A stretch of DNA of 64,000 bases from positions 66,736,924 to 66,800,923 of the forward strand of contig NC_081355.1 in assembly GCF_030684315.1 (NCBI RefSeq), given 5' to 3'. The position numbers were made by a program, and so were the translations under genes. Under the pieces are notes generated by a model, which ran no database searches, was not told where the DNA came from, and saw only the letters and a list, made by a program, of their open reading frames with translations. Positions 3,021 through 62,738 of the stretch are shown one piece after another. Origin of the DNA: Stegostoma tigrinum. Lineage: Eukaryota. Positions within the stretch are counted from its first letter, which is position 1. The number at the start of each line of letters is the position of its first letter.

Positions 3021-3224
3021 TGTTGAAGATGAGAAAAGTCTTTGATTCTGTAGGTTGCTTTCCCAATGCAGTAGGAAGCATTGATGGAGTCAATGGATGG
3101 AAGGCTGGTTTATGTGGCGAACTGGGCTGCATTCATGACTCTCCATAGTTTCTTTCAGGCTTGGCCACTTGAAGAATGTGCCATACCATGCTGTGACGCA
3201 TCCAGATAGGATGCTCCCAGTGAT

Positions 3225-3317
3225 AACATGGTGTGAATCTGGATGAACACAGCAGGCCAAGCAGCATCAGAGGAGCAGAAAAGCTTGACATTTCGGGTTG
3301 GGTTCCTTCTTCAGAAA
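3225..3317 (-). mobile_element. Penelope terminal-repeat mini-insertion with hammerhead motif
   Basis: Minus strand TTT-CTGAAGA-AGGAACCCAACCC-GAAAT-GTC-AAG; 19-bp flanking duplication at 3206-3224 and 3318-3336 (2 mismatches). Confidence 0.8.
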
Positions 3318-3520
3318 ATAGGATGCTTCCTGTGATGCATCTGTAAAAATTTGTACACGTCTTTATGGACATGCCAAAAACCCTTGGCCTCCTGAGGAAG
3401 TACAGGCATTTCTGTGCTTCTTTCACCATAGTGTCAATATGGGTGAACCAGGGCATATTGTTGGTGATCATCATGTTCAGAAATTTGATGCTGTCAACCA
3501 TCTCGCCTTCTCCCTTCCAG

Positions 3521-3842: not shown

Positions 3843-4248
3843 TCCACCTCAGTGCCATTGATATAGACGGGAATGTGCCCTCCACTCCACTTCCTGAAGT
3901 CAATGATCAGCTCCTTTGTTTTGCTGATGTTGGTGGAGAGATTGTTGTCTTTTCATCACATTGTTAAACACACTATCTCCTTTCTATACTCCATCTCACT
4001 ATTGTTTGAGGTGTGACCTACACCCGTGGTATTGTTAGCAAACTTGTACAAGGAGTTGGTATTGAATCTGGGCACACAGTCATCTGTGTATAAGGATAAA
4101 GTAGGGGGCTGATTACACAGCCTTGCAAGGCACTCATTCTGAGGATTATCATGGAGTAGGTGTTGTCGTCTATCCTTATTGACTGCAATCCGTTGGTCAG
4201 GAATTTGAGAATGCTGTTACAGAAGAGGGAACAAAGACCTAGGTCCAA

Positions 4249-4334
4249 TGAAGGGTCTAAGCCCGAAACATCTGCTTTTGTGCTCCTGAGATGCTGCTGG
4301 GCCTGCTGTGTTCATCCAGCCTCACATTTTATTA
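4249..4334 (+). mobile_element. Penelope terminal-repeat mini-insertion, hammerhead core clipped
   Basis: tgaagggtctaagcccgaaacatc..ctgctgtgttcatccagcctcacattttattatc; TCCAA repeated at 4244-4248 and 4335-4339. Confidence 0.8.
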
Positions 4335-6905
4335 TCCAAGTTTAGAGATAGGTTTGTTTGGAATTATAGTGTTGAAGGTGGAACTGTAGTGAATTACTAG
4401 GGGACTAGTTTTGTTGTTGTCCAGATGTTCCAGGGATGAGTATAGGGCTTAGGGAGGCGGCGTCTGTTTTGGACCTGTTGCACCAGTAGGACAATTGAAA
4501 AGGATCAAAGCAATTTGGGAGGCTGGAGCTGATATGAGTGATGACCAACCTCTCAAAGCACTTCATAATGATAGAGGTCGGAGCTACTGGCCAGTAGTCA
4601 TTGCGGCAGGCTGCATGTTATTTCTTTTGCACTGGATGATGGTGGACTTCTTGAAGCAGATGGGAACTTCAAATCATAGTAAAGGAAAATAGAAGATGTC
4701 CGCAAGCTGATCAACACAGGATCTGAGTGCATGACAAGGGATTCCATCCCAGCCAGTCCCTTTCTTTTGATTTACACTTAAGAAGGTCAACCTAACATCT
4801 GCGCTCATGACTGTGGGTACCGGTGCATCTGAAGCTGATGGGACAGGTGACATTGTTTCATTGACCCTCTGTTCAAAGTGAGTGTGGAATGCATTAAGCT
4901 CATAGAGTGGGATGTACTGCTTCCTGCAATTCTGTTAGACTTTGCTTTGCAGTCAGTTTGTTGTATAAGCCTTTCCATGAACGACAGGTTTCCGTGTGGT
5001 TGGTTTGGTCTCAAGCTTAGTTTGTATTGCCTCTTGGTGTCTCTCATGGCCTTATGAAGGTCATATCTGGATTTCCTGTGTAGATCAGAGTTGCCTGACT
5101 TGAATGCCTCAGGCCTGGACTTTGATAGGGAGTGGATCTCCCAGTTCATCCATGGTTTCCAGTAGGGGCACATTCAGATTAATTTCTTCAGAACACAGGC
5201 ATCTACACACAGTCCATCAACTCTAAGCATATCTGTAGAAGGCCTTCTATTTCCTCAGACTAACATTGCGCTATTTTCTGTACTGAGTCCTCATGCTTCA
5301 AGTTTTGCTTGGAATCTGGGAGGAGGAGCACAACGTTGTGATTTGATTTTCCAAAATGCGGATGGGGAATGAAGTGGTAGCATCTTTTATGGTTGCCTAG
5401 CAATGATCAAGGATATTTGGACCTCCTGCAGAACAGGAGACATGTTAGTGGCATTTTGGTAGCTCATTATTGAGGTTGACCTGCTTGAAGTCACTGACTA
5501 CGATAAACAAGGCTTCGGGATATTCCATCTGAAGACTGTTTGGAGTTTTGTATACTTCATCAAATGCACTCTCCGTTTCTGCTTCAAGTTAAATGTAGAT
5601 CACTGTCAGGATAGTGGATAGTATGGTAGTATGTTAAATGATCTCAGTCCGGGGAGCAATGACTCTCAAAGTCACCACATCTGAGCATCAGGAGGTGTTG
5701 ATCAGGAGGCAGACATCACCGTTCCTTGCCTCGCCTGTGGACGCTGATAGGTCCATTCAGTGAATTGAGAAACTAAAAGGTTGTAAAGCACATTGAGCTG
5801 TAGCAGAGGTGAGCCATTTCTCTTTGAAACAAAGCACACAGCAGTCTCTCAGTTCTCTCAATCTTTCAGCTTTAATATTTAATGCAATGATTGTTGACTA
5901 ATATGAACAAGTTGGCCAGTTTCAGCACGACTGATTTTGGAAATAGCCACAGGTTAAATGACTTTTAAAACTAGAGTTGAGTAAATCCATTTAAAATAAA
6001 AAAGGACTAATTAATAATTTGTTGGGGCTTGAGACGGAATTAAAAGAGGATTTTGATTAAGTTCTGAGGTAATGGATCTGACCTGGGAATCATGCTTTCT
6101 AGTGGATTTCAATTTCTTTTCTTGGCTTGCAATTATATCCCTCAGGAATATTGATGGATTTTGTGTCATAAAGCACTGGATCTGTACAGAATTTAAAAAC
6201 TGTATTCTTGAATTAACTTCCTTATGATATCTAAGTGTTAATACTATGCCTAGGGATAAGTTCTCAACTTAACAGTATAGTCTTGAAGGCTTCTGAAGTT
6301 TGCTAAACATCAGAAGGCCTCAGTGTTTCTACGTTTATTGATTGATCCAGATGGATATATTGCAGCATTTGAAACATTTATTTAGAAAGTTGGTTTCTAC
6401 TTCTAAGTGGGGCAGCGGTGAAATGAAACATATCCCCAGAACAGAAATTTGATGGCTTCCAACTGCAGATTTTCAGTTTTGCTGACAGACCTTCATTGAG
6501 GCAACAATTGCTCCCCCACCAAAAAATACCATATAACATACCTCAGGCAACACAGACTGAGAAACAGCAATTTCCAACATTAATTAAAAGAAATCAATGG
6601 CTGCAGTACCAGAAAACAGAATGTAGGCTTGGCATACATTTTACCTTGTCTTTTGAGGATGTTTTGAGTTTTAAAGGCTTCTGTATTTAACTCTACTTTT
6701 GGATGATCTCTTTAAATTTCTGAGAAACTGAAATAAGCTATTTCATTGACCCAGGAAAATTTATTAGGCCCTCCGACAACATCAGCAGACATACACTCAA
6801 AATAAAGATTAGCTATGCTTTACCAGTTTGAGATCTAACTCTGGGCTTCAGTCAACTAAGCAGTTTCGATACATTATTCCCAGAGTAGTCTCACTATCAC
6901 AATAC

Positions 6906-11014: not shown

Positions 11015-11085
11015 CAGACAGAGCAAGAATTGCTGATGCTGGAGTCAGAGATAACACAGTGTGGAGCTGGAGGAGCACTACAGGT
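11015..11085 (-). mobile_element. Penelope terminal-repeat mini-insertion (3' tip only)
   Basis: gatgctggagtcagagataacacagtgtggagctggagga; perfect 15-bp duplication AGATATGAATTTCCT at 11000-11014 and 11086-11100. Confidence 0.85.
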
Positions 11086-11418: not shown

Positions 11419-11549
11419 TAATAAAAAACTGCGGATGCTGTAAATCAGGAACAAAAACAGAAGTGCTGGAAAAGCTCAGTAGGTCTGGCAGCATCTGTGA
11501 AGAAAAAAATCAAAATTAATGTTTCGGATCTGTGACTCTTCCTCAGAAG
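11419..11549 (-). mobile_element. Penelope terminal repeat (second subfamily) with hammerhead motif
   Basis: Minus strand TT-CTGAGGA-AGAGTCACAGATCC-GAAAC-ATT-AA at 11516-11548. Confidence 0.8.
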
Positions 11550-15696: not shown

Positions 15697-15825
15697 GAGA
15701 TAGTAAGAAGTGCCGATGCTGGAGTCAGAGATAACACAGTATGGAGCTGGAGGAACACAGCAGGCCAGGCAGCATCAGAGGAGCAGGAAAGCTGGTGTTT
15801 TGGGTTGGGACCCTTCTTCAGAAAA
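15697..15825 (-). mobile_element. Penelope terminal-repeat mini-insertion, decayed hammerhead
   Basis: Minus strand TTT-CTGAAGA-AGGGTCCCAACCC-AAAAC-ACC (mostly CpG decay of CGAAACGTC). Confidence 0.8.
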
Positions 15826-15934
15826 TTTTCCATGCTGTGTAATTAATGAGACAAGATCTGCAGGTATTAAGGTCATTAACAAACAATAATCCCCCTTAGT
15901 AGGCAATGTACCACTGTCTCATCTGAATCTCACT

Positions 15935-21750: not shown

Positions 21751-22049
21751 TTGGTGTTATATCTGTCTGCTTGGGAGCTTTGTCAGGAAAGTTTATATCT
21801 TCAGGCAAGTTCCAATGGTTTACTCTTTGAGTTTTATCTGATTTTCCTACCTAAGCTGGTTGGACGCAAACAGTAAGGCTCAGACTGAGTACGCAGCTCT
21901 ACGTTTGATCCTTTGCTGAGCACGGAAAATGAGACAGAAAGCTTGATCATGTCACTTTCACCTTAGCCTGTAATTCCTCTCTGCACATATCCGAGGACCC
22001 CCTCCTGGAGGAACTTCAAAGGTTCTCTAAGGTATAGAGGGAAAAGATG

Positions 22050-23435
22050 TGGCAATTACAGACCAGTAAGTCTCACGTCTGTTGTCTGCAAGGTGTTAGA
22101 AATGATTCTGAGGGAAGGATTTATGACCATCTGGAAGAGCATGGCTTGATCAAATACAGTCAACACGGCTTTGTGAGGGGCAGGTCATGCCTCACAAACC
22201 TTATCGAGTTCTTTGAGGATGTGACTAGAAACTTTGATGAGGGTAGAGCTGTGGATGTGGTGTATATGGACTTCAGTAAGGCATTTGATAAGGTTCCCCA
22301 TGGTAGGCTCATTCAGAAGGTCAGGAGGAATGGGATACAGGGGAACTTAGCTGCTTGGATACAGAATTGGCTGGCCAACAGAAGACAGCGAGTGGTAGTA
22401 GAAGGAAAATATTCTGCCTGGAAGTCAGTGGTGAGTGGGGTTCCACAGGGCTATGTCCTTGGGCCTCTACTGTTTGTAATTTTTATTAATGACTTGGATG
22501 AGGGGATTGAAGGATGGGTCAGCAAGTTTGCAGACGACACAAAGGTCGGAGGTGTCGTTGACAGTATAGAGGGCTGTTGTAGGCTGCAGCGGGACATTGA
22601 CAGGATGCAGAGATGGGCTGAGAGGTGGCAGATGGAGTTCAACCTGGATAAATGCGAGGTGATGCATTTTGGAAGGTCGAATTTGAAAGCTGAGTACAGG
22701 ATTAAGGATAGGATTCTTGGCAGTGTGGAGGGACAGAGGGATCTTGGTGTGCAGATACATAGATCCCTTAAAATGGCCACCCAAGTGGACAGGGTTGTTA
22801 AGAAAGCATATGGTGTTTTGGCTTTCATTAACAGGGGGATTGAGTTTAAGAGTCGTGAGATCTTGTTGCAGCTCTATAAAGCTTTGGTTAGACCGCACTT
22901 GGAATACTGCGTCCAGTTCTGGTCGCAGTATTATAGGAAAGATGTGAATGCTTTGGAGAGGGTTCAGAGGAGGTTTACCAGGATGCTGCCTGGACTGGAG
23001 GGCTTATCTTATGAAGAGAGGTTGACTGAGCTCGGTCTCTTTTCATTGGAGAAAAGGAGGAGGAGAGGGGACCTAATTGAGGTATACAAGATAATGAGAG
23101 GCATAGATAGAGTTGATAGCCAGAGACTATTTCCCAGGGCAGAAATGGCTAGCACGAGGGGTCATAGTTTTAAGCTGGTTGGTGGAAAGTATAGAGGGGA
23201 TGTCAGAGGCGGGTTCTTTACACAGAGAGATGTGAGAGCATGGAATGCGTTGCCAGCAGTAGTTGTGGAAGCAAGGTCATTGGGGTCATTTAAGAGACTG
23301 CTGGACATGCATATGGTCACAGAAATTGTGAGGGTGCACACATGAGGATCAATGGTCGGCACAACATTGTGGGCTGAAGGGCCTGTTCTGTGCTGTACTG
23401 TTCTATGTTCTATGTTCTATGTTCTATGTTCTATG
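22050..23435 (+). mobile_element. Young 5'-truncated CR1 LINE with an open RT frame and (TTCTATG)n tail
   Basis: ORF 22047-23345: QHGF..SCLTNL, DFSKAFD, PQGYVLGP, FADD, LVRPHLEYC; no endonuclease; tail at 23401-23435. Confidence 0.95.
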
Positions 23436-27671: not shown

Positions 27672-27768
27672 AGTTCTGAGGAAGGAACACTGAACCCAAA
27701 ACATTAACTCTGCTTTCTCTCCACTGATGCTACCTGAACTGCTGAATTTTTCCAGCAATTTCTGTTTC
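27672..27768 (+). mobile_element. Penelope terminal repeat (second subfamily) with hammerhead motif
   Basis: AGTT-CTGAGGA-AGGAACACTGAACCC-AAAAC-ATT-AACT; stem I AGTT/AACT pairs perfectly. Confidence 0.8.
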
Positions 27769-35611: not shown

Positions 35612-36792
35612 TAGAACATAGAACGTAGAACATAGAAGAGTACAGCACAGAACAGGCCCTTCAGCCCACGATGTTGTGTCGACCATTGATCCTCATGTAT
35701 GCACCCTCAAATTTCTGTGACCATATGCATGTCCAGCAGTCTCTTAAATGTCCCCAATGACCTTGCTTCCACAACTGCTGCTGGCAACGCATTCCATGCT
35801 CTCACATCTCTCTGTGTAAAGAACCCGCCTCTGACATCCCCTCTATACTTTCCTCCAACCAGCTTAAAACTATGACCCCTCGTGTTAGCCTTTTCTGCCC
35901 TGGGAAATAGTCTCTGGCTATCAACTCTATCTATGCCTCTCATTATCTTGTATACCTCAATTAGGTCCCCTCTCCTCCTCCTTTTCTCCAATGAAAAGAG
36001 ACCGAGCTCAGTCAACCTCTCTTCATAAGATAAGACCTCCAGTCCAGGCAGCATCCTGGTAAACCTCCTCTGAACCCTCTCCAAAGCATCCACATCTTTC
36101 CTATAATAGGGCGACCAGAACTGGACGCAGTATTCCAAGTGCGGTCTAACCAAAGTTTTATAGAGCTGCAACAAGATCTCATGACTCTTAAACTCAAGCC
36201 CCCTGTTAATGAAAGCCAAAACACCATATGCTTTCTTAACAACCCTGTCCACTTGGGTGGCCATTTTAAGGGATCTATGTATCTGCACACCAAGATCCCT
36301 CTGTCCCTCCACACTGCCAAGAATCCTATCCTTAATCCTACACTCAGCTTTCAAATTCAACCTTCCAAAATGCATCACCTCGCATTTATCCAGGTTGAAC
36401 TCCATCTGCCACCTCTCAGCCCATCTCTGTATCCCGTCAATGTCCCGCTGCAGCCTACAACAGCCCTCTATACTGTCAATGACACCTCCGACCTTCGTGT
36501 CATCTGCAAACTTGCTGACCCATCCTTCAATCCCCTCATCCAAGTCGTTAATAAAAATTACAAACTGTAGAGGCCCAAGGACATAGCCCTGTGGAACACC
36601 ACTCACCACTGACTTCCAGGCAGAATATTTTCCTTCTACTACCACTCACTGTCTTCTGTTGGCCAGCCAATTCTGTATCCACACAGCTAAGTTCCCCTGT
36701 ATCCCATTCCTCCTGACCTTCTGAATGAGCCTACCATGGGGAACCTTATCAAATGCCTTGCTGAAGTCCATCTGCCACCTCTCAGCCCATCT
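35612..36792 (-). mobile_element. Young 5'-truncated CR1 LINE, near-identical to 22050-23435
   Basis: ORF 35707-36645 with PQGYVLGP, FADD, LVRPHLEYC; tail agaacatagaac; inserted in an older CR1 (~35440-35611 and 36793-36985). Confidence 0.95.
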
Positions 36793-39860: not shown

Positions 39861-39916
39861 CCAGGCTTAGTAGCTGTGCCCCTATAGCTAGAAAAACAGG
39901 GAAAGAAATATTCCTA

Positions 39917-40041
39917 GACAGCAAGAACTGTAGATGCTGGAGTCAGAGACAACATAGTGTGGAGCTGGAGGAACACAGCAGGCCATGCAGTACCAGAGGA
40001 ACAGGAAAGTTGACTTTTCAGGTCAGGACCCTTCTTCAGAA
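39917..40041 (-). mobile_element. Penelope terminal-repeat mini-insertion with hammerhead motif
   Basis: Minus strand TT-CTGAAGA-AGGGTCCTGACCT-GAAAA-GTC-AA. Confidence 0.8.
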
Positions 40042-41795
40042 GTACTCCTGCCTGATGCTCCGAGGAAGTGCAACCTCAAAAACAGCATTAAGCAAGGTGG
40101 ATGGTTGTTGAAAATTTCAAGAGTGTTATTCAAATGTCTGGAAGGGAACAGTAATATTTGAATCTGGAGAGAATGCAATAGGTTCTATAATTCCCATGGC
40201 ACCTCTGTTCAGAACACTGAGTGATCTGCTTAGGGGTAGGTCTGTGACAGTGGAAGACAGCCTCCAAGTCCCTTTCATCAAACTGTACATCCCCTCCATC
40301 AATTAGGTCCTGCTTCAAGTTGTCAAAAAAGCATCCTGTTCTGGAAGAGAAATAGCCAGAATGTGCAGAGGCTGGTTTTTCTGTATGTGAAATGTTTCAT
40401 ACAGTTGAAGTGTTGTGAGATGTACCTGAGGCTTGTATATTGCTTGTGAAACGTGTATTAGTGTGGAAAGTTGTTAATATCAATATACAGTGGGACAAAA
40501 TATTGTAGAGCTTGTGCTGCTGATGGTAGTTATTGAGAAGTGGGTTTGTGAAATGGGATTTTACTTTGTACACTCATAGCAAGTCTTTCAATTTACAGGA
40601 TACTAGAATCATATATTTGGGCCAGGACTTCTGTCAGTCATCTCCCAAATGATTTTCACTCATATATTCTTCATTAACTGTCTCTATGGCATCTTTCATG
40701 ATTGAGAAAGAGGGCATCTCTCCTCTTTCAGGTAGGCAGCATATACAGTTCCAGAAAACTTGTTTGCAATAAGGATTTCAATGTGAAGTGCATAAATGTC
40801 AATTTTCAGCTCTTCATGCATATTGAAATCCTGACAATTATCAATAAGGCCCAAAATTTCATGTTAAATACAGACTTTCAAACATGTGTTTCTTAGTAGC
40901 ACAGAAGCTCTTTTCACCCTCTTTCCAAGATTAGCTACAGTGAGATAGTTCTCTCAGTTGGGGGGTGTTCCAGAAATGTTGCTCAATGAATTGTAATAGG
41001 ACAGAAGGTCTCATCTAAGGTCTGAGGGAAGAATGAAAATATCTGTCCCAGAATTACTCAGCATCAGTCATATTCTCCACAGTTTCTCTTCCTTGTTTAC
41101 ATCTCCAGGTTTCACTTCATGGCACAGTGCTGCCTGGAACTGAGGAGAAGATGAAAACCTACATCAGGATTTTAAAGGCAACAGTGGCCATGTCCACTTG
41201 CTGGCAAGTTCATGGAAATGCAACCTCAACTCTGATAACTTTGACTAGATTTTGTGTGGTTAAGGCATCAGGCCTCCAATCATTTCATGGGCGAAATCCC
41301 TCCTTCAAGAACTGTTGGTCATTCAGAAGGAAGGTGACACTTCAGTCCCAGCAGCACCACTGCTTGGGTTTAGTGAACCCAGCACAAGGCAGAGGTTCAA
41401 AATCTGACATTTCCTGCTCTAAATGGCCCTAGTTATTCAATTCTTTTAACACATAATAACATCGCTGATACTTAATAGATGCAAACAGACAGATTAGGTG
41501 TTAGATTTACTTAATAATGTCATTATACCTAGGTACAGAGAAAAGAATATCACATCACCTTGTTCTGACGCTATCTTGGATTACAGGATATTTTACACAA
41601 GTGGTAAAATACTGATTAAATTAAATAAAACAGATCATTTTTCCCTCTCCATTGACTTCACCCTCTTTGTTCCTCTAGTTGGCATTAATGTGTACTTCTA
41701 TCAAAATTAATACTAAAGCAATGGATACAGTAATACAGCATAATGAAAAAAGTTGTTCAGTGGATCATAGACTAGTAGATACACATTTGTAGAAC

Positions 41796-47889: not shown

Positions 47890-50081
47890 ACTAGCCTTGG
47901 GTGTCTGTCTGTGTGGAGTTTTCACATTCTCCCTGTGTCTGCGTGGGTTTTCTCTGGGTGCTCCGGTTTCCTCCCACAGTCCAAAATTGTGCAGGCTAGG
48001 TGAATTGGCCATGCTAAATTGCCTGTAGTGTTCAGGGGTGTGTGGGTTATAGAACATAGAACATTACAGCACAGTACAGGCCCTTCGGCCCTCGATGTTG
48101 TGCCGACCTGTCATACCGATCTGAAGCCCATCTAACCTACACTATTCCATGTACGTCCATATGTTTATCCTATGATGACGTAAATGTACCTAAAGTTGTC
48201 GAATCTACTACCGTTGCAGGCAAAGTGTTCCATTCCCTTACTACTCTCTGAGTAAAGAAACTACCTCTGACATCTGTCCTATAGCTTTCACCCCTCAATT
48301 TGAAGCTATGCCCCCTCATGCTCGCCATCACCATCCTAGGAAAAAGGCTCTCCCTATCCACCCTATCTAACCCTCTGATTATTTTATATGTTTCAATTAA
48401 GTCACCTCTCAACCTTCTTCTCTCTAACAAAAACAGCCTCAAGTCCCTCAGCCTTTCCTCGTAAGACCTTCCCTCCATACCAGGCAACATCCTAGTAAAT
48501 CTCCTCTGCACCCTTTCCAAAGCTTCCACATCCTTCTTATAATGCGGTGACCAGAACTGTAAACAATACTCCAAGTGCGGCCGCACCAGAGTTTTGTACA
48601 GCTCCACCATAACCTCTTGGTTCTGGAACTCGATCCCTCTTTAATAAATGCTAAAACACTGTATGCCTTCTTAACAGCCCTGTCAACCTGGGTGGCAACT
48701 TTCAAGGATCTGTGTACATAGACACCGAGATCTCTCTGCTCATCTACACTACTAAGAATCTTATCATTAGCCCTGTACTTTGCCTTCTGGTTGCTCCTAC
48801 CAAAGTGCATCACCTCACACTTGTCTGCATTAAACTCCATTTGCCACCTCTCAGCCCAGCTCTGCAGCTTATCTATGTCTCTCTGCAACCTACAGCATCC
48901 TTCGTCACTATCCACAACTCCACCGACCTTAGTGTCGTCTGCAAAGTTACTAACCCATCCTTCTACGCCCTCATCCAGGTCATTTATAAAAGTGACAAAC
49001 AGCAGTGGACCCAACACCGACACTTGCGGTACACCACTGGTAACTGGTCTCCAGGATGAACATTTCCCATCAACTACCACCCTCTGTCTTCTTTCAGCAA
49101 GCCAATTTTCGATCCAAACTGCTATATCTCCCACAATTCCATTCCTCCGTATTTTGTACAATAGCCTACTGTGGGGAACCTTGTCGAACGCCTTGCTGAA
49201 ATCCATATACACCACATCAACCGGTTTACTCTCATCTACCTGTTTGGTCACCTTCTCAAAGTACTCAATAAGGTTTGTGAGGCACGACCTTCCCTTCACA
49301 AAACCGTGCTGACTATCCCTAATCAATTTATTCTTTTCTAGATGATTATAAATCCAATCCCTTATAACCTTTTCCAACACTTTACCAACAACTGAGGTAA
49401 GGCTCACTGGTCTATAATTACCAGGGTTGTCTCTACTCCCCTTCTTGAACAGGGGAACCACATTTGCTGTCCTCCAGTCATCTGGCACTATTCCTGTAGA
49501 CAATGACGAGTTAAAGATCAATGCCAAAGGCTCGGCAATCTCCTCCCTGGCTTCCCAGAGGATCCGAGGATAAATCCCATCTGGCCCAGGGGACTTATCT
49601 ATCTTCACCTTCTGAAGGATTTCTAATACCTCTTCCTTGTGAACCTCAATCCCACCTAATCTCGTAGCCTGTATCTCAGTATTCTCCTCGACAACATTGT
49701 CGTTTTCTAGAGTGAATACTGTTGAAAAATATTCATTTAGCACTTCCCCTATCTCATCTGACTCCACACACAACTTACCACTACTATCCTTGATTGGGTC
49801 TAATCTTACTTTCATCATTTTTTTATTCCTTAAATACCTATAGAAAGCCTTAGGGTTTACCCTGATCCTATCCGCCAACAACTTCTCACGTCTCCTCCTG
49901 GCTCTTCTGAGCTCTCTCTTTAGGTCTTTCCTGGCTACCTCATAGCCCTCAAGTGCCCTAACTGAGCCTTCACATCTCATCCTATAGGGGGATGGGTCTG
50001 GGTGGGATGTTCCAAGGGGCGGTATGGACTTGTTGGGCCAAAGGGCCTGTTTCCACACTGTAGGTAATCTAATCTAATCTA
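47890..50081 (+). mobile_element. HE1 V-SINE split by CR1 (pieces ~47890-48052 and 49983-50081)
   Basis: V-core at 47905-48030 ends gtgtgggttatag and resumes tatagggggatgggtctgggtggg..(aatct)n. Confidence 0.85.
48053..49982 (-). mobile_element. Young 5'-truncated CR1 LINE (one frameshift near 48630)
   Basis: ORFs 48448-50058 (KSPGPDGIYPRIL, NYRPVSLTS, DFSKAFD, FADD) and 48170-48610 (LVRPHLEYC..RGDLIE). Confidence 0.95.
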
Positions 50082-51207
50082 CACGGTGTTCAGATCTATT
50101 TTGAACTTATTTGAGAAGGAGGCACAACATTAGTGCATGCAGAACATTTTGGACAACATTAAGTCTGGAGCTGACAAGTGGCAATAACCTTCTCCAACAA
50201 CAGAGATTTACATCATCTTCCTATGACTTTCAATGGCAATGCCTTAATCAATTCCACCCAAATCAACATCCTGGAATAACCATTGACCAAATACTTAAAC
50301 GTTTCAAACACACATGCACTACAGCTCCAAGAGTACGTAAAATGATGGGTGTTCAACAATGTTTGGCTTACCTCAAAAATACAAATCAGAAGACTGATTA
50401 TGTCCTGTCTACTTGCCTGGATGAGCATGGCTGCTACAGCACTTAAGAAGTTTGATGGCTAACAAGCAAAACAGCCAAATGGTTTGGCACACTGACTCCT
50501 TCGACTGCTCCTTCCAAATTTGTGATCTTTGCAACTTCAAAGTATGCAGACTCTCGAACACCACAAACTGCAAGTTCCACACCAAAGTACACACAACCTT
50601 GGCTAGGTAATATATCACTATTCTTTCAAAGAAGCTGGGTCACAATCTTAGAAATCCCTCCCCAGCAGCATTTTGATGTACCTAACTTCAAAAAGGCAAT
50701 TCAGCACCACTTTATCAAGGGAAATTAGAGAGGGCAATATCTGTTGACCATGCTATTAATACTCGCACCACATGAATGCATAAGAAGATTTTTTGCCGTC
50801 ATTTCAATCTTTAAAGATGCATTTAAAAAACCAGTAAGTTATTATTTCCAGAGCTAATCAATATTAACTTGCAATATAATCAGATATATGACAATTAGAA
50901 TTGCCTTTACAACTAATACTTTCCAGTCCCTATGTGTGCACATTTACAATGCTTGGCATGTTAATCAGAATAGTTGTGTTAATTTTCATGGATGAGATGT
51001 AAATGAAGGGCACTTGACTAAAACTAAAGCATTTGTGTTTTCCAGTGTAAAATAGATAAAAAGTAAGCATAAGGAGTTAAAGCAAGATTAGAAATAACAG
51101 TTCAAGGATAGAGTAAAACATCAAAAGAAACCTTTTTATACATAGAAAGCAGGTATCAAAATAACCTGGAATCCAAATGCATAGAATATTGCAAACGGTT
51201 TTGGTCC

Positions 51208-51310
51208 TCTGATGAAGGGTCTAGGCCCGAAATGTCAGCTTTTGTGCTCCTGAGATGCTGCTGGGCCTGCTGTGTTCATCCAGCCTCACATTTTATTATC
51301 TTTGATTCCA
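51208..51310 (+). mobile_element. Penelope terminal-repeat mini-insertion with intact hammerhead core
   Basis: CT-CTGATGA-AGGGTCTAGGCCC-GAAAT-GTC-AG at 51207-51238; body nearly identical to 4249-4334. Confidence 0.85.
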
Positions 51311-52171: not shown

Positions 52172-52296
52172 TAAACACAAAGAACTGCAGGTGTTGGAAA
52201 TCTGAAATAAAAATAATTAAACAAGCAGGTTTGGCAGCATCTATGCACAGAAAATACATTTAACATATCACACGAAGTGACACTTCGTCAGAACTG
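52172..52296 (-). mobile_element. Penelope terminal repeat (second subfamily), decayed hammerhead
   Basis: Minus strand CAGTT-CTGACGA-AGTGTCACTTCG..; body aagaactgcaggtgttggaaatctgaaataaaaa. Confidence 0.7.
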
Positions 52297-54929: not shown

Positions 54930-56190
54930 ATTATGCTAAAGATAAATGTTATGAGACTATCTCCAAAATGATCACTGATTTCTACATCATCCATCCTACC
55001 CATTTCTGTTTGCCAAAACCTAATTTAGAATTCCATCCTTTCTCATTGGTCTTGTTATATGTTAAGAATGTTCTTTTGAAAGCATTTCATGAATGTTGTG
55101 CCCCTTGAGCCTGTCACCAGATTTGCATCCGAGTTCATACTTGGGTAGTTGAAATCCACAACTAAGATTGCCCCATTGTGTTTGCCCTTGGAAATTGCCT
55201 ACATATTTGCTCTTCTACCTCACCTGCACAATCTGTGGATTTGTAGTGTATACCTAGCAATTTAGCTGCCCAATTTTTGTTTCTGAGCTCAACCCATGTG
55301 ACCTCATTTAGAATAATATCTCCATCTCAGCTGCACTTGATTCTTTAACCAATAATGCTACAAACCTACCTTTTCTAATTCTCTTTTCTATTGTGTTTGA
55401 ATATTCTATATCCCATAATGTTAGAATGCTACTCTTACCCCATGTAAGCTTAATTTACATTTTTTCAATGATCTCATGGTGCCATGCGTCTCTGAGCCCT
55501 CAGTAAATCAGCTTTATTTGCTACACTCCTCTGGTTTACATTTTTCGCTCATACTGCCAAATAACTGTGTTGTACACATCTTAACCTGAGCTTCTTATAT
55601 TTTTCAGAGTCACTCACTAAACTTCTGCCTCTGCTTCGTGAACCTAATCCCCATTCCTACCAAAGTTAACGTGGGCAGTGATCTTTGGCAGGTCACCCTC
55701 CACTGGAAGAATGCCCTGCAGCTGCTCTGGAACGTCCTTCATCCTGGCCCAGGGGTACAACAACGAGCCATGTCAGCAGCCACAAAAACATCCGAAATTC
55801 CCAAACACTAATGTTTTCCAATGTTCTTTTTTAAATGAACTGTCATTTTGTCACCAATGTGGTGCTGACTGCAGTCCCTTCAGGAACTATCTCCCTCATG
55901 TATATCCAAAACAAAATAACAATTAGCAAGGAAAATTGACTCAGGAGACTCTTGTAATGCCTCCATGCTTTTCTACGCTGCCTGGCAGTCACCCATTCCC
56001 TCCCTGCTACACTTCTAACCTGCCTAACGTATCATCAACCTAGTCCTCTGCCTACTGAATGCAAGACTTGGTACTCCAGTTCTGAAAGCCAGAGCTCAAG
56101 CATCTGGGAACACTTTTTGCAGATGTGTTTGCCTGGGACAGATGTTCCAATTCTAATTTACTAGTACTAACCATTCGGCTTCTTATCCTG
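54930..56190 (-). mobile_element. Highly decayed CR1-like 5' (endonuclease/ORF1) remnant
   Basis: Antisense VDFNYP (GDFNYP-like) at ~55140-55160; the remainder is only weakly similar. Confidence 0.4.
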
Positions 56191-56377
56191 CACTGAAATA
56201 AGAGCCAACTGCTACGAGCAAGGTTGACTTTCAAGGGCCTGACTGCCAGTGGGCCAGTTGACAATGTTAAGTGGGCAATTAATTCTCAGTTGAGGGCCTC
56301 ATCCTATCACTGATAGCTTAACCTGATACTAAGAGCAGCCAAAATGTCTCCTTAACTGGCCCAGTGAGATTATCAGA

Positions 56378-56581
56378 GATAGTAGGAACTGCAGATGCTG
56401 GAGAATCCGAGATAACAAAGTGTGGAGCTGGATGAACGCAGCAGGCCAAGCAGCATCTTAGGAGCACAAAAGCTGACGTTTCGGGCCTTTCTGATGAAGG
56501 GTCTAGGCCCAAAATGTCAGCTGTTGTGCTCCTAAGATGCTGCTTAGCTTACTATGTTCATCCAGCTCCACACTTTCTTAT
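56378..56581. mobile_element. Inverted twin Penelope terminal-repeat element
   Basis: 78-bp arms 56411-56488 and 56505-56582 around ttCTGATGAagggtct; perfect 16-bp duplication CAGTGAGATTATCAGA at 56362-56377 and 56582-56597. Confidence 0.9.
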
Positions 56582-58005
56582 CAGTGAGATTATCAGATGG
56601 CTCTTCAGCAAGTTCATTACTATTGCGCACTCCAATAACTCAAAAAGGTTTCATCCCTCCCACCTCCCACATTGGCCTCACAAAACTTACACCCCCACCT
56701 CAACAACAAATGTGTCAGACATGATATTCAGTGCAGTAATTTGAGAGTTATTCGGAATGTAAAAGGAAGGACATGACTACAATGCTTAATGACAACTGTG
56801 CGATGGATTCACTGAAATGATTCAGGATAGAATACAACAGCCAGCAAAATCCCTCAAGCTCCGAGGTAGGAGTTGTATGTACAATTTATAATTATCATGT
56901 CATCAAGCAACAAAATAATTAAGCTTTTAAAATGGTTCACATGTGCAGTTGTTAAAGCATATTGAAGTTGCATAGATGTTTAATGCTTCCCTTTTTAATG
57001 TATTGCCAATGGCATGTTTCTGAGAGCGGTTCTTTCAGCTTATTTAGCACTTGCTATAATCATTTAGTTTGAACTTTGAAAGCAGTAATGTTTTCAATTA
57101 TAATTACATCTTCACTTTCAGAATAAATAAAAGTTGGGAAGGGAATCCCAAGCTGCAACAATAGGCTAACTCCAGATTAAAAGCAAATGACTTTTATAAT
57201 TATTAGAGTCAAATTGACTAACTTCAGGCCAGCATTATAACTTGAGATGATAAGCATGTGTATCCCAACCAGTGAGACGTATTGAGTTGAATTCAAGGCT
57301 GTCATGTTACATCTGGTAGATAAAGGAGATCAGGACCTGCCTATAAAAATTCAAACTATTGATTCTCGGGTATTTTCTGAAATGAAAATTCTACTGTTAC
57401 GTATTTTATGAAGACAACACTAAAGCCTTCAATCTAGTGAATAAAAGGTAGTTAGAGTTTTATCTCCATGAGATTTTAGTACTGCAAACATTTTAGGACG
57501 ATATTATATTTGATAGTATGCAAAAGCAAATTAGAAGCATATGTATCACAAAGAAACAGTATCCTTCAATTTGGTTTCACAGAGTATAGTTATGTTTGGG
57601 ACTACCAGTGGACGTTAGCAATTTCCTATTGTTCCTTATAATTATCAAAACTCTTGGTCTGGCAGGCCACACTTTCTCTGCATATAAACCGCTGCATTTA
57701 AGAAACAGAGTACCAGCGAATATTACCTGAAAGGGAGTTCTACAAGCAGGATGATCAGTATGTTCTTCTTTGCTGTGGATATTCCACAAGGACATTAAGT
57801 TGATTTACAGTATGCTAAAGGTATAATTGTTTCTGGCACAGATATGAAGGTTAGGTTTGTGTGATTGTCATGCTGTTTTATGGTATCTGCACACACCTCC
57901 ATATTTAGCAATGTAATCACAGTATAAAAGAAAGGCAAGGATTATATGTAAGATATAATAATGAAAACATTTTTTCTGGAAACAGACTAAATGCTTTACT
58001 GAGTG

Positions 58006-59610
58006 GGAGATAGAAAGAACTGCAGATGCTGGGAGCCAGAGTCGATAAAATGTGGAGCTGGAGGAACATAACAAGTCAGACAGCATTTGATGAGCGGAAA
58101 AGTTGATGTTTTGGGTCTGGACCCTTCACCAGGATTGGGTTTGGTGGAGGGGAGGGAGCTCAGAAATAAATAGACAGAGGTGGGTGAGGCTGAGCAAAGG
58201 TAAGTGGGATGGTGATAGGTGGATGCAGATTGGGGGTTGTACAGATTGGTCAGTGGAGAGGGTGGGTTGAATACATGAGAAGGAAGATGGACAGATTGTG
58301 TCAGATTAAGGTGGTGGGGATGAGAGGAACGACTGGAAATGAGATGAGACTAGGGGCGGGGAGATTTTGAATCTGGTTAATTCTATGTTGAGGCCATTGG
58401 ACTGTGAGCTCCTGATGTGGAATACAAGGTGTTGTTCCTCCAGTTTATGTGAGGCCTCATTTTGACAGTAGAGGAAGCCCAGGATGGACATATTGCCAGG
58501 GAAATAGGAGGGGGAGTTGGAATGGCTGGCAACAGGATAGTGTCGATTGGTACACAGATGCTCTGCTAATTGGTCATCAAGTCTGCACTTAGTCTCTCTG
58601 ATGTAGAGGAGCCAACATCTGGAGCAATGAATGCAATAAACCAGTTTGGAAGATGTACAGTTCAAACCTTATCAGACATGGAATGATATTTTGGGGAGAG
58701 TGGGTGTGTAGGGGCCAGTGTTGTACTTCCTGCAGTTGCAAGGAAAGGTGCTGGGTGTGGTGGAAGTGTTGGCAAGAAGTGTGGAGCTAACGAGGGAGTT
58801 GCGGAGTGAGCAGTCCCTACAGAAAACAGAAAGTGATAGGGAAGGAAATATCTTTTTTAGAGTGGGGTCTGATTGCAGGTGGCGAAAATGGCAGTTAATG
58901 ATGCATTGGGATTTGGAGGTTGGTGGTGTGGTATCTGAGGACCACAGGGATTCTGTCCTTATTGTTGGTGGTGGGGGGGGGGGGAGTGCAGAAGGGCAAG
59001 AGATGTGGTTAAGGGCATTATGAATCACGGGAAAGGGGAAGTGACTGTCCTTGAAACAGGAGGACACCTGGGATGTCTGGGAGTGGAACACTTCAGCCTG
59101 GGAGCAGATGTAGTGGATGCAGAGGATTTGGGAGTATGGGATTGGGCTTTTACAAGAAGGTGGGTGAGAGGAGATGTAGTCAAGGCAGCTGTGGGAAACA
59201 TTGGGTTTGAAATAGATGTTGGTGCTGTGTCAGTTGCCGGAGATGGGAACAGAGACGTCCAGGAAGGGAAGGGAGTTGTCAGAGGTGATCAGGGTGAATT
59301 TGAAGTCGGGGTGAAAGGTGTTGGTGAAGTGGATGAACTATTTGGTCTCGTTGTGGGAGCACGTGGCAGTACCGATAGCTGCGGAAGACGACTGTTCATT
59401 CGAAGAGGCAGGCATCGCTCGGACGCACGCAGGTGCCCATTACCCCATCCCACCAACCTTCCCCAACCCCACCCCTCTCCCTCTATTTACTTCCGAGCTC
59501 CCTTCCCCATCCCCACTCCTGATAAAGGATTAGATCTGAAACATCGACTTTCCTGCTCCTCAGATGCTATCTGACCTGCTGTGGTCCTCCAGCTCCATAT
59601 TTATCAACCC
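58006..59610 (-). mobile_element. Penelope-like retroelement, 5'-truncated, with inverted terminal repeat
   Basis: GIY-YIG ORF 58306-58665 (LVYCIHCSRC..LYIRETK..EH..VASH..GLN), linker 58672-59091, RT tail FTNTFHPDFKFT..LPFLDV (~59250-59340); terminal repeat at ~58006-58250 and an inverted copy at ~59436-59610. Confidence 0.9.
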
Positions 59611-60094
59611 TAAATAAATTATTGTAAGAGTGCTATCTGTTTGTTGAGATAGAAATTTCTTGCTATTTGGTTTGATGTGCCACAGGCATTCCATTCTGAT
59701 AGTTACCAGAGGACTGGGCATGGGTGGGGTGCAGATTGAAAATGGACCAAGTGCCAGTTAAAGCCATAGAGTGGAGATCCCACTGAATTTACCAGCAGGA
59801 CTTATGAGCAGAATCACGGCATTTGTCCAAGTGGCTGTGGGGCATGCAGTAAGAGAGTTCATTTGAAGGAGGTTGTTGCTGGCGAGCTCTGGGGCTATTC
59901 CTCAACAACTTGAAAAAAAGAAGAGGTTTTGATCAGAGGTAAGGATAATGGTTATGATTAAAAGTTGAGGAGAAAAGCTTAGTAATAGGGATGGCCGGGA
60001 AGAAGAGGCTTTAAGTGGTGACTGGATGAGACTAAACACAATTCCTTCAAGACTAGGAGGTACTTCTCACCCACAACAAGTCCTGAAATGGGCA

Positions 60095-61230: not shown

Positions 61231-61858
61231 GAGAAATATGGTGGCAACGTGTGCAAATTAAGGGTAATGAAGACCCCAAAAGCAGCAAGTAATAAAGGAA
61301 AAGAAAATACAAAGATAGCTAACCACGTAAATACTTCAGCAAATCAGAAGACAGAAAGACAAAGAAATCTGCTACCTCCTGAGCACTATAATAACTGCAA
61401 GCAAGCTAGGAAGCAAAAAGAGGAGGCAGGACAATTCAAACAATTTTGAAGAAAAATAATGACATTTGTTTGGTTCTCTTGAGTTTCAGATTAGCACCAT
61501 TGTAAAATGGATTATCTGCAGCTACATTATTAGTATGGGGAAGACTGCAAAATCAGCTTCCATTGTTACCTGGAACATTAAAACTTCATATCATCTTCAG
61601 AAGATCATAACTAAGTGAGAAAATGTGAGCAAGTCCAAAGATAAAAGCAACCAGGAATTTTGGTCAACGTCATCGAGCATGCAAGTTGTCAATTCTTCAG
61701 CTACGAAGAGGAATGGCTTTCAGTCTGATAACAGGAAGGAACAGTGCTTAAGAAAACAGAAGAGCTGACATTCTACTTGGTGGGGACAAGTTATTTTAAG
61801 GAGAAATCAGAAAGCCTTCGCCTACTTGAAAAGAAAACCAGCATGAACTTGGAGGTTA

Positions 61859-62039
61859 AAATTATATCAGAGATAATGGGAACTGCAGATGCTGGAGAAT
61901 CTGAGATAACTAAGTGTGGAGCTGGATGAACACAGCAGGCCAAGCTGCATTTCTGATGAAGGGTCTAGGCCCAAAACATGCGCTTTTGTGCTCCTAAGAT
62001 GCTGTTTGGCCTGCTGTGTTCATCCAGCTTCACACTTTG
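61859..62039. mobile_element. Inverted twin Penelope terminal-repeat element
   Basis: Arms aagtgtggagctggatgaacacagcaggccaa / ttggcctgctgtgttcatccagcttcacactt; CTGATGA core; perfect 15-bp duplication TGAACTTGGAGGTTA at 61844-61858 and 62040-62054. Confidence 0.9.
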
Positions 62040-62054
62040 TGAACTTGGAGGTTA

Positions 62055-62282
62055 TGAGCTGTAGAGCTGGATGAACTCAACAGGCCAGGCAGCATCAGAT
62101 GAGCAGGAGAGCTGACCTTCCGGCTCTGGACCCTTCTTCAGAAAGGTTCTTCATTTCTGAAGAAGGGTCCAGATCTGAAACGTTAGCTTTCCTGTTCCTC
62201 TGATGTTGCCTGACTGCTGTGTTCATCCAACTCTACACCTTGTTATCTCAGACTCCAGAATCAGCAGTTTCTATGATCTCTG
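62055..62282. mobile_element. Inverted twin Penelope terminal-repeat element with back-to-back hammerhead motifs
   Basis: Arms ~62061-62144 and 62154-62238; plus-strand core CTGAAGA(62157)-AGGGTCCAGATCT-GAAAC-GTT-AG is intact. Confidence 0.9.
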
Positions 62283-62604
62283 AACATTAAGGTAACTACT
62301 TTGACTTTTAAGAAGAGAAAGGGACACTCAAGAATCTCTACAATTATCCAAGTGATAGCGACTGAAGTTGAGAAAAGAGAGAGTAAATGATCCCATCAAT
62401 CTCAGAAACAAATCCGAACAAAATCAGAGAGGGGTATGAAACCACATCTTATACTAACCCTGTGACATTTCAGAATTTGAGGGAAAATGGCAGAAAATGT
62501 AAATATTGGGAGTAAAGATTTAGAGGGGCAGTAGAATGAGAAGTAATGACTTAATAGCGTTGAGTCCAAGAGATCTTAATGTCATGATGCTTTAAGTTGA
62601 CATG

Positions 62605-62738
62605 ACTGGAAGAGTCAGTAGACTCTCAACATTAATTCTGCTTTCTTTCCACAGATGCTGTTCTACCTGCTGAGTTTCATCAGCAATTTCTCTTTTCGTT
62701 TAAGATCTCCAGCAGCCGAAGTTCTTTGTTTTATTTTG
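62605..62738 (+). mobile_element. Penelope terminal repeat (second subfamily), decayed
   Basis: gaagagtcagtagactc stem II, aacattaa, ttccacagatgctg..cctgctgagttt..cagcaattt. Confidence 0.7.

Follow-up and report, generated by a model that had tools for sequence, protein, structure and literature searches.

The window, the whole 64-kb stretch of DNA that was analysed, is animal DNA with many LINE-type reverse transcriptase (RT) remnants. Three LINE-type RT frames in it are still open (22038-23345, 35707-36645 and 48448-50073; 435, 312 and 541 aa), the first with RVT_1, and these long open frames suggest young insertions. From its sequence, the repeat under study is the pseudo-LTR, with a minimal hammerhead motif, of a Penelope-like element (PLE) that resembles Neptune. 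One long element of about 1.6 kb in total has its ORF remnant and main pseudo-LTR on the minus strand, along which the layout runs from the ORF through a C-rich tract and the minimal hammerhead to a 3' end at ~58000. The segment 59376-58330 aligns with residues 104-463 of a whale-shark homologue, P0003, at 55% identity; in this homologue GIY-YIG passes the Pfam cut-off, which RVT_1 does not reach, and the two window ORF fragments by themselves gave no Pfam match. RT followed by a C-terminal GIY-YIG in one ORF is the arrangement of endonuclease-positive (EN+) PLEs, and the pseudo-LTR, the inverted 5'-truncated copy and the one-ended tail that belong to this group are likewise found. The linker C-X4-C-X2-C is present in P0003 and degraded in the window copy; according to the available text of PMC8557442, a CX2-5CxxC linker between RT and endonuclease is described for Neptune, and Nematis has a similar one. 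The window element is a likely candidate member of the Neptune clade.

The two pseudo-LTR copies of the long element, 58000-58215(-) and 59436-59611(+), are 75% alike. The initial annotation took 59436-59520 for the long element; the C-rich upstream tract that it described there is present, but the segment belongs only to the inverted 5' arm of the 1.6-kb element. Between the truncated ORF and this arm lies a 59-nt CpG-rich filler (59377-59435) with no match elsewhere in the window, possibly captured from another RNA or inserted later. Two 3' termini ~45 nt apart (58006 and 58051) are visible in contigs and match the two-start-site tail of PLEs. In the three dimers and in the long element, one arm has the long 3' end and the other the short end. 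The features are collected in Table 1.

Table 1. Features of the repeat in the window. Offsets are counted from the C of CTGANGA (0); the predicted cleavage site is at +28. Arms are named by position and strand.
Feature	Coordinates	Strand	Arms and details
ORF remnant of long element, RT + GIY-YIG	58306..59376	-	broken, 5'-truncated; 55% identity to whale-shark PLE protein, E 1.7e-106
3' pseudo-LTR of long element	58000..58215	-	core at 58132; C-rich tract; TATA-like TATTTAT 58172-58166; initiator-like A at 58136; two 3' termini near 58051 and 58006
Inverted 5' arm of long element	59436..59611	+	core at 59519; C-rich tract; TATA-like TATTTAC 59484-59490; initiator-like A at 59515
Short family-1 copy	51207..51300	+	51209(+), start -1/-2 (1-2 nt before core)
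Minimal hammerhead (predicted) of copy 51207..51300	51209..51236	+	CTGATGA 51209-15; helix II 51217-28; GAAA 51229-32; GTC 51234-36; predicted cut after 51236
Short family-1 copy	3225..3317	-	3314(-), start -3/-4; 19-nt target-site duplication 3206-3224 / 3318-3336, 2 mismatches
Family-1 copy, exception	4248..4336	+	4248(+), start +3, inside core
Family-1 copy, exception	11015..11085	-	11085(-), start ~+56; 15-nt duplication by eye, 11000-14 / 11086-100
Short family-1 copy, long 3' tail	15697..15826	-	15821(-), start -4/-5
Short family-1 copy, long tail	39916..40043	-	40039(-), start -4
Head-to-head insertion, 16-nt duplication	56362..56597	.	minus arm 56488(-), start +14 (exception), long tail; plus arm 56491(+), start -3, short 3' end
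Head-to-head insertion, 15-nt duplication	61844..62054	.	minus arm 61952(-), start ~+46 (exception); plus arm 61953(+), start -4; joint shares AT
Head-to-head insertion	62057..62285	.	both arms at edge: 62141(-), start -3; 62157(+), start -4; filler ~8 nt
Family-2 short copy	11423..11548	-	11546(-), start -2
Family-2 short copy	27672..27760	+	27676(+), start AGTT (-4), pairing with AACT after cleavage triplet (helix I)
Family-2 short copy, core decayed	52179..52295	-	52291(-), start AGTT (-4)
Family-2 copy, core decayed	62602..62728	+	62606(+), edge not callable

The motif has the core and the helix II of a minimal type I hammerhead, for which self-cleavage, as a dimer or with protein, is predicted. 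The core CUGANGA...GAAA NN UH is intact in 5 of 14 arms. Helix II, of ~4-5 bp, is paired in 89% of cells, and two of its four pairs are changed on both sides. Helix I has 2-4 bp and is paired in 61% of cells over the 14 arms, its two inner pairs holding in 13/14 and 11/14, the third in 2/14 and the fourth in 8/14; minimal type I hammerheads are expected to have a helix I of 4-5 bp. The folding energy of seven arms is no better than that of shuffles (z -1.36 to +1.30). A descriptor scan of the window gave 11 matches, and that at 55120 is unrelated to the repeat. Rfam returned no match at gathering score, with sub-threshold hairpin matches only, over inverted repeats, and a search of contigs from viruses, metagenomes and prokaryotes with the hammerhead pattern was negative.

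In the window, profile searches yielded 18 arms, comprising 12 short arms of family 1, two arms of the one long element and four arms of family 2, which is more distant. Of the 12 short arms in family 1, eight have their start between -1 and -5, and the four exceptions all start further downstream. No arm among the 12 extends upstream beyond -5 or has its start at the cleavage site (+28), and nine cross all or almost all of the hammerhead core. In family 2 loop II is longer and helix III has AACATT; this family is without a long parent in the window, so that its edge is defined only by the mutual likeness of its copies; three of its four arms begin just before the core, two of them with the common AGTT, and the fourth is too decayed. 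The edge is common to the family-1 sequence groups, which are 72-92% alike, and to family 2. The 100% cross-family identities are end-gap artefacts and were disregarded.

These counts refine the earlier statement that copies begin about 1-6 nt before CTGANGA: it holds for eight of 12 arms in family 1 and three of four in family 2, and the four downstream exceptions had been left out. The clustering in the original list of ten copies stands, although 62141(-) was missed, three of the ten belong to family 2, and the positions given as cores are boundaries.

Target duplications are significant in one of the eight single arms scored (3314(-), with a score of 13 that was reached by 0.2% of 2000 random pairs) and present in two of the five composite spans. 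Words like TCTGA make the target sequences 56362-56377 and 3203-3224 similar to the element's own ends; within the repeat, TCTGA is found at about -1, +43, +93 and +130. This may reflect priming or a preference of the endonuclease. At 61844-62290 two head-to-head insertions of different subfamilies directly adjoin each other, the second without a recognisable target duplication.

The clustering of short-copy starts just before the hammerhead is real, which confirms the non-random 5' boundary proposed from the initial annotation. For eight of 12 starts to fall in one 4-nt window, the probability is at most 3e-6 if truncation is uniform, taking the least favourable range, and 1e-11 if stops occur at a constant rate, as derived from the downstream exceptions. 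Two exceptions were entered in these tests as +50 and +57, which leaves the order of magnitude unaffected, and the arms of one dimer are not fully independent in these chance figures. The objection that the edge merely marks alignment loss in the C tract is ruled out, since the flanks of the short arms are not C-rich and both the target duplication and the head-to-head joints fix the edge. In the 30 nt that precede each of the 13 short arms scored, C makes up 10-30% (background 20%), versus 50-53% in the two long arms. Furthermore, the 19-nt target duplication places the boundary of 3314(-) at -3/-4 without alignment, and the joint is exact in three head-to-head insertions because the neighbouring DNA is the other arm.

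Beyond the window, contigs of four public runs (8574, 8334, 5312 and 81 contigs) were aligned to 57956-58855 at 80% likeness; runs X1 and X3 represent one organism from one study, and X12 a second organism. Loose ends behind 58127, running into unrelated DNA, are present in 124 contigs of X1, 116 of X3 and 61 of X12. Their consensus reads TTCAGAAA and is followed by low agreement (0.45-0.49). Among the positions listed for these three runs, 58127 is the sole low-agreement loose end on the 5' side, and in X17 (81 contigs) it does not appear among the positions listed. The true 3' terminus at 58006 has 147, 151 and 94 contigs with an agreement of 0.36-0.39, that at 58051 has 116 and 117 contigs with an agreement of 0.46, and positions of mere alignment loss inside the element show 0.68-0.72. 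A simulation with breakpoints spread over the tract gave an agreement of 0.68 and 12.6 G of 22, compared with the observed 0.45-0.49 and 3-4 G. From the simulation fit, at most ~10-15% of the clipped contigs continue into the C tract; contigs aligning through the tract are not counted at 58127.

Depth across the edge drops ~10-fold in X1 and X3 and 2.3-fold in X12; as it is erratic, rising again in parts of the tract and the ORF, it yields no genome-wide fraction or copy number. Near-identical young copies collapse in contigs, and the table of positions with many molecule starts or ends was empty. The peak at the edge is present in contigs of two organisms, in data that do not give its share of all copies. 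At 58128-58157, past the 5' edge, the flank consensus is strongly T on the plus strand (A-rich in the sense direction) in X1 and X3, and flanks past the 3' ends are A-rich on the plus strand. In contig pieces the parent of the short copies reads CCCC-ATTT-CTGA, which fits the initiator pattern. Searches of proteins for breakpoints with the translated repeat returned only three antisense-ORF proteins, and a profile built from four of six arms (the other two had stop codons) gave two matches.

The reading favoured here, with a probability of roughly one half, is that the edge corresponds to the transcription start of the element, that is, to the 5' end of its RNA. The boundary, the two 3' termini, the head-to-head structure, the target duplications and the motifs at the distances given below are visible directly in the DNA; we infer that the promoter is active, that RNA starts at this site, that reverse transcription begins internally in this family and that it runs off. 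A promoter in the pseudo-LTR, composed of the C-rich tract, a TATA-like box and an initiator, would start the RNA at the A at -4, which would also be the first base of helix I. The RT-endonuclease of the element would bind the uncleaved RNA and begin cDNA internally from the nicked target, with two alternative sites lying ~90 and ~135 nt downstream. RT using the sites nearest to the RNA 5' end would run off after 95-140 nt, and the product would be connected either with the target's other end or with another cDNA that was primed on the opposite strand, often with a loss of 1-3 bases. Such short products, without the upstream promoter, would be dead; in full-length or read-through RNA, the 3' pseudo-LTR would give rise to long copies. 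Run-off of this kind would account for the hard upstream limit, the small downstream scatter, the two product lengths, the edge common to both families and the lack of starts at the cut site.

Several observations are consistent with this start-site reading. The upstream limit is sharp, with 1-3 nt of downstream scatter, and is repeated in the contigs of two organisms; the edge also recurs in four arms that are joined to another arm rather than to target DNA. In both long arms the A of a YYANWYY motif falls at -4. A TATA-like box lies 31 nt upstream of this initiator in the 59519 arm and 36 nt upstream in the 58132 arm, which has five extra bases. In RNA polymerase II core promoters the TATA box stands ~30 nt before the initiator. 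Within the window, this pairing occurs at 24 of 1596 initiator-like sites, for consensus patterns that were chosen after sequence inspection. A PLE promoter within the pseudo-LTR has been described for D. virilis (PMC2377424) and, in the available texts, for Chlamydomonas (PMC8557442), and a TATA and initiator-like pair is noted in a rotifer pseudo-LTR (PMC3846280). The accessible part of the study on the anole Poseidon element (PMC11167929) reports an RT that initiates internally at two sites and extends both target strands, a shorter product from a template with a shorter 5' end, and uncleaved RNA as the main template, RNA-seq ends at the cut site not having been found there.

Other observations stand against it. 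The spacing between TATA-like box and initiator is unequal in the two long arms, the box of the 59519 arm departs from TATAWAW at two positions, and two more initiator-like sites lie in the 58132 arm. An extra cap-derived G before the A at -4 is absent in all five arms that retain this A. For the subfamilies to which the short copies themselves belong, the promoter part is absent from the window, and family 2 lacks any parent there. In D. virilis the promoter is internal, with a start well upstream of the hammerhead (PMC2377424), and the in vitro biochemistry concerns Poseidon, whereas the window element looks like Neptune. Finally, the A-rich sense-strand flank consensus in the contigs suits a target-site effect.

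This last point leads to an alternative that is possible but rather doubtful, in which RT on a longer RNA would stall on entering the C-rich tract, owing to a bound poly(C)-binding protein or to the G-rich cDNA. Microhomology joining of the AT-rich, endonuclease-cut end to ATTT, or trimming by the endonuclease of its own copy at ATT, would then collect scattered stops at one base, which gives the same genomic picture as the start-site model. The A-rich flank consensus is accompanied, in several cases, by 1-2 nt that both sides of a joint have in common (T at 56488; AT at 61949-50; at 3318, T or AT), the tract cDNA has 5-10 runs of at least three G, and both arms of the long element, with ACTC or AATC in place of ATTT, pass the edge. 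Moreover, the available texts describe a preference of the anole PLE endonuclease for AT-rich DNA and an ATT motif (PMC11167929) and a 5' joint made by microhomology in a rotifer PLE (PMC3846280). Funnelling of this kind is opposed by the T-rich patches at ~+31 to +34 and +83 to +89, which gather no boundary among the 12 arms, by the flank bases -5 to -8 in the window, which are 22/44 (50%) A+T and under the 60% of the window, by the AGTT start of family 2 and by the recurrence of the edge in arm-to-arm joints. As unfunnelled scatter over the tract is rejected by the simulation, the trimming would need to be nearly complete.

The initial annotation itself had offered two mechanisms, that RT ends or jumps template right after crossing the folded ribozyme, or that a defined short uncleaved RNA is the template. 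The first of these is weak and we consider it quite unlikely, also with a ribozyme that is dimeric or protein-bound. It is true that the edge coincides with helix I's 5' end in both families (8/14 with an A-U pair), that one arm ends at +3 and one at +14, and that the anole hammerhead is protein-assisted in the available text of PMC11167929, so that a protein-RNA complex may sit there. The helices, however, are short (helix II 4 bp, helix I 2-4 bp), and the folding energy of the seven arms is ordinary. Structure-caused RT stops lie 3' of a helix, not after the helix has been copied; a structural block predicts stops 3' of the fold, at ~+28 to +35, where none of the 12 arms begins. The second mechanism fits better as far as a defined, uncleaved RNA is concerned: the lack of short arms starting at +28 and the crossing of the core by most of them agree with a template uncleaved at the hammerhead site. 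This RNA need not be short, because a defined 5' end and internal initiation, as seen in the available text of PMC11167929, give the same product.

A similarly improbable reading treats the short copies as non-autonomous descendants of a small number of short masters, SINE-like or retrozyme monomers, that by chance began at the edge. The lack of a long parent of family 2 in the window would suit such masters, and non-autonomous PLE derivatives exist according to the available texts of PMC8557442 and bioRxiv 10.64898/2026.07.22.740005. Nevertheless, the edge is common to several sequence groups, and partner arms, 3' termini and joints differ per insertion, which indicates that the copies were made anew; their exact 5' end would still need regenerating. 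SINEs transcribed by RNA polymerase III carry internal A and B boxes as their hallmark. None of the six arms tested has an exact match to either box, by consensus patterns, and a non-LTR retrozyme is set aside as no head-to-tail tandem is found among the 18 arms of the window. A 3' splice site at the edge, with the C tract (77-80% Y) as polypyrimidine tract and with a D. virilis intron that ends at the helix I 5' end (PMC4209133, available text) as a parallel, is very improbable, as no AG stands before the edge, which reads CC and then A. Spliced RNA would also carry a common upstream exon, and the unrelated flanks largely refute this reading.

The role of the PLE hammerhead and the origin of the pseudo-LTR are stated as open in the available texts of PMC8557442, PMC2377424 and PMC11167929. 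One step of the cycle is recorded in vivo by a fixed 5' edge in very many copies. According to this record the template is usually uncleaved, and the prediction, at the level of one base, is an RNA start at -4. If the window is typical (11 edge-starting arms per 64 kb, with contig sets of ~2.7 Gb), ~10^5 such copies would exist, as an extrapolation from one window. A wider reading is put forward tentatively, although it is rather unlikely to hold as a whole: the shark PLE transcript would begin at the first base of the hammerhead, and copying from cap-proximal internal start sites would be the default. The mass of solo hammerhead copies would then be a fossil map of transcription start, and any truncated copy retaining the C tract could feed more solo copies. 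Self-cleavage 32 nt from the cap would act as a decapping switch, and cleavage in both repeats with ligation, or read-through, would lead to full-length or tandem copies that regain an external promoter. If true, this would link the purpose of the PLE hammerhead, the solo motifs that vastly outnumber full elements and the need of PLEs for partial tandems.

Truncated solo hammerheads are already known, and the fixed edge together with its match to the core-promoter layout is apparently new, as neither was found in the literature searched, in which coverage of subscription papers, figures and supplements was limited; the available part of PMC7561263 holds nothing on 5'-edge clustering. The available text on metazoan PLE minimal hammerheads (Cervera and de la Pena 2014, PMC4209133) describes motifs like those of the window in their core, the extra base before helix II, the short helix I, the palindromic AACGTY that replaces helix III, and their occurrence mostly solo or as opposite-strand pairs. 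Helix II has 4-5 bp in the window versus 7-8 in Schistosoma. Solo motifs are ascribed there to truncated PLEs, without mapping of copy starts, whereas the window copies have a fixed start. The anole Poseidon element PAc (Frangieh et al. 2024, PMC11167929), as far as its available text goes, shares with the window the two 3' termini, the extension of both strands and the uncleaved template; it belongs to another clade, and the text explains 3' ends without a genomic 5'-end peak. Animal non-LTR retrozymes, in the available text of bioRxiv 10.64898/2026.07.22.740005, are like the window copies in being non-coding, hammerhead-bearing and derived from PLE pseudo-LTRs, but they form head-to-tail tandems with one ribozyme per unit, whereas the window copies are dispersed singly or as head-to-head arms.

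The closest agreement is with EN+ PLEs as described in the available texts of PMC8557442 and PMC3846280. These have, like the window element, RT followed by GIY-YIG, a pseudo-LTR, an inverted 5'-truncated neighbouring copy, an optional one-ended tail and target duplications of variable length. The tail measures 30-40 bp there, compared with termini ~45 nt apart in the window, and 5' truncation is called frequent or variable, whereas the window copies peak at one base. By the features examined, the insertions in the window behave as endonuclease-positive PLE insertions.
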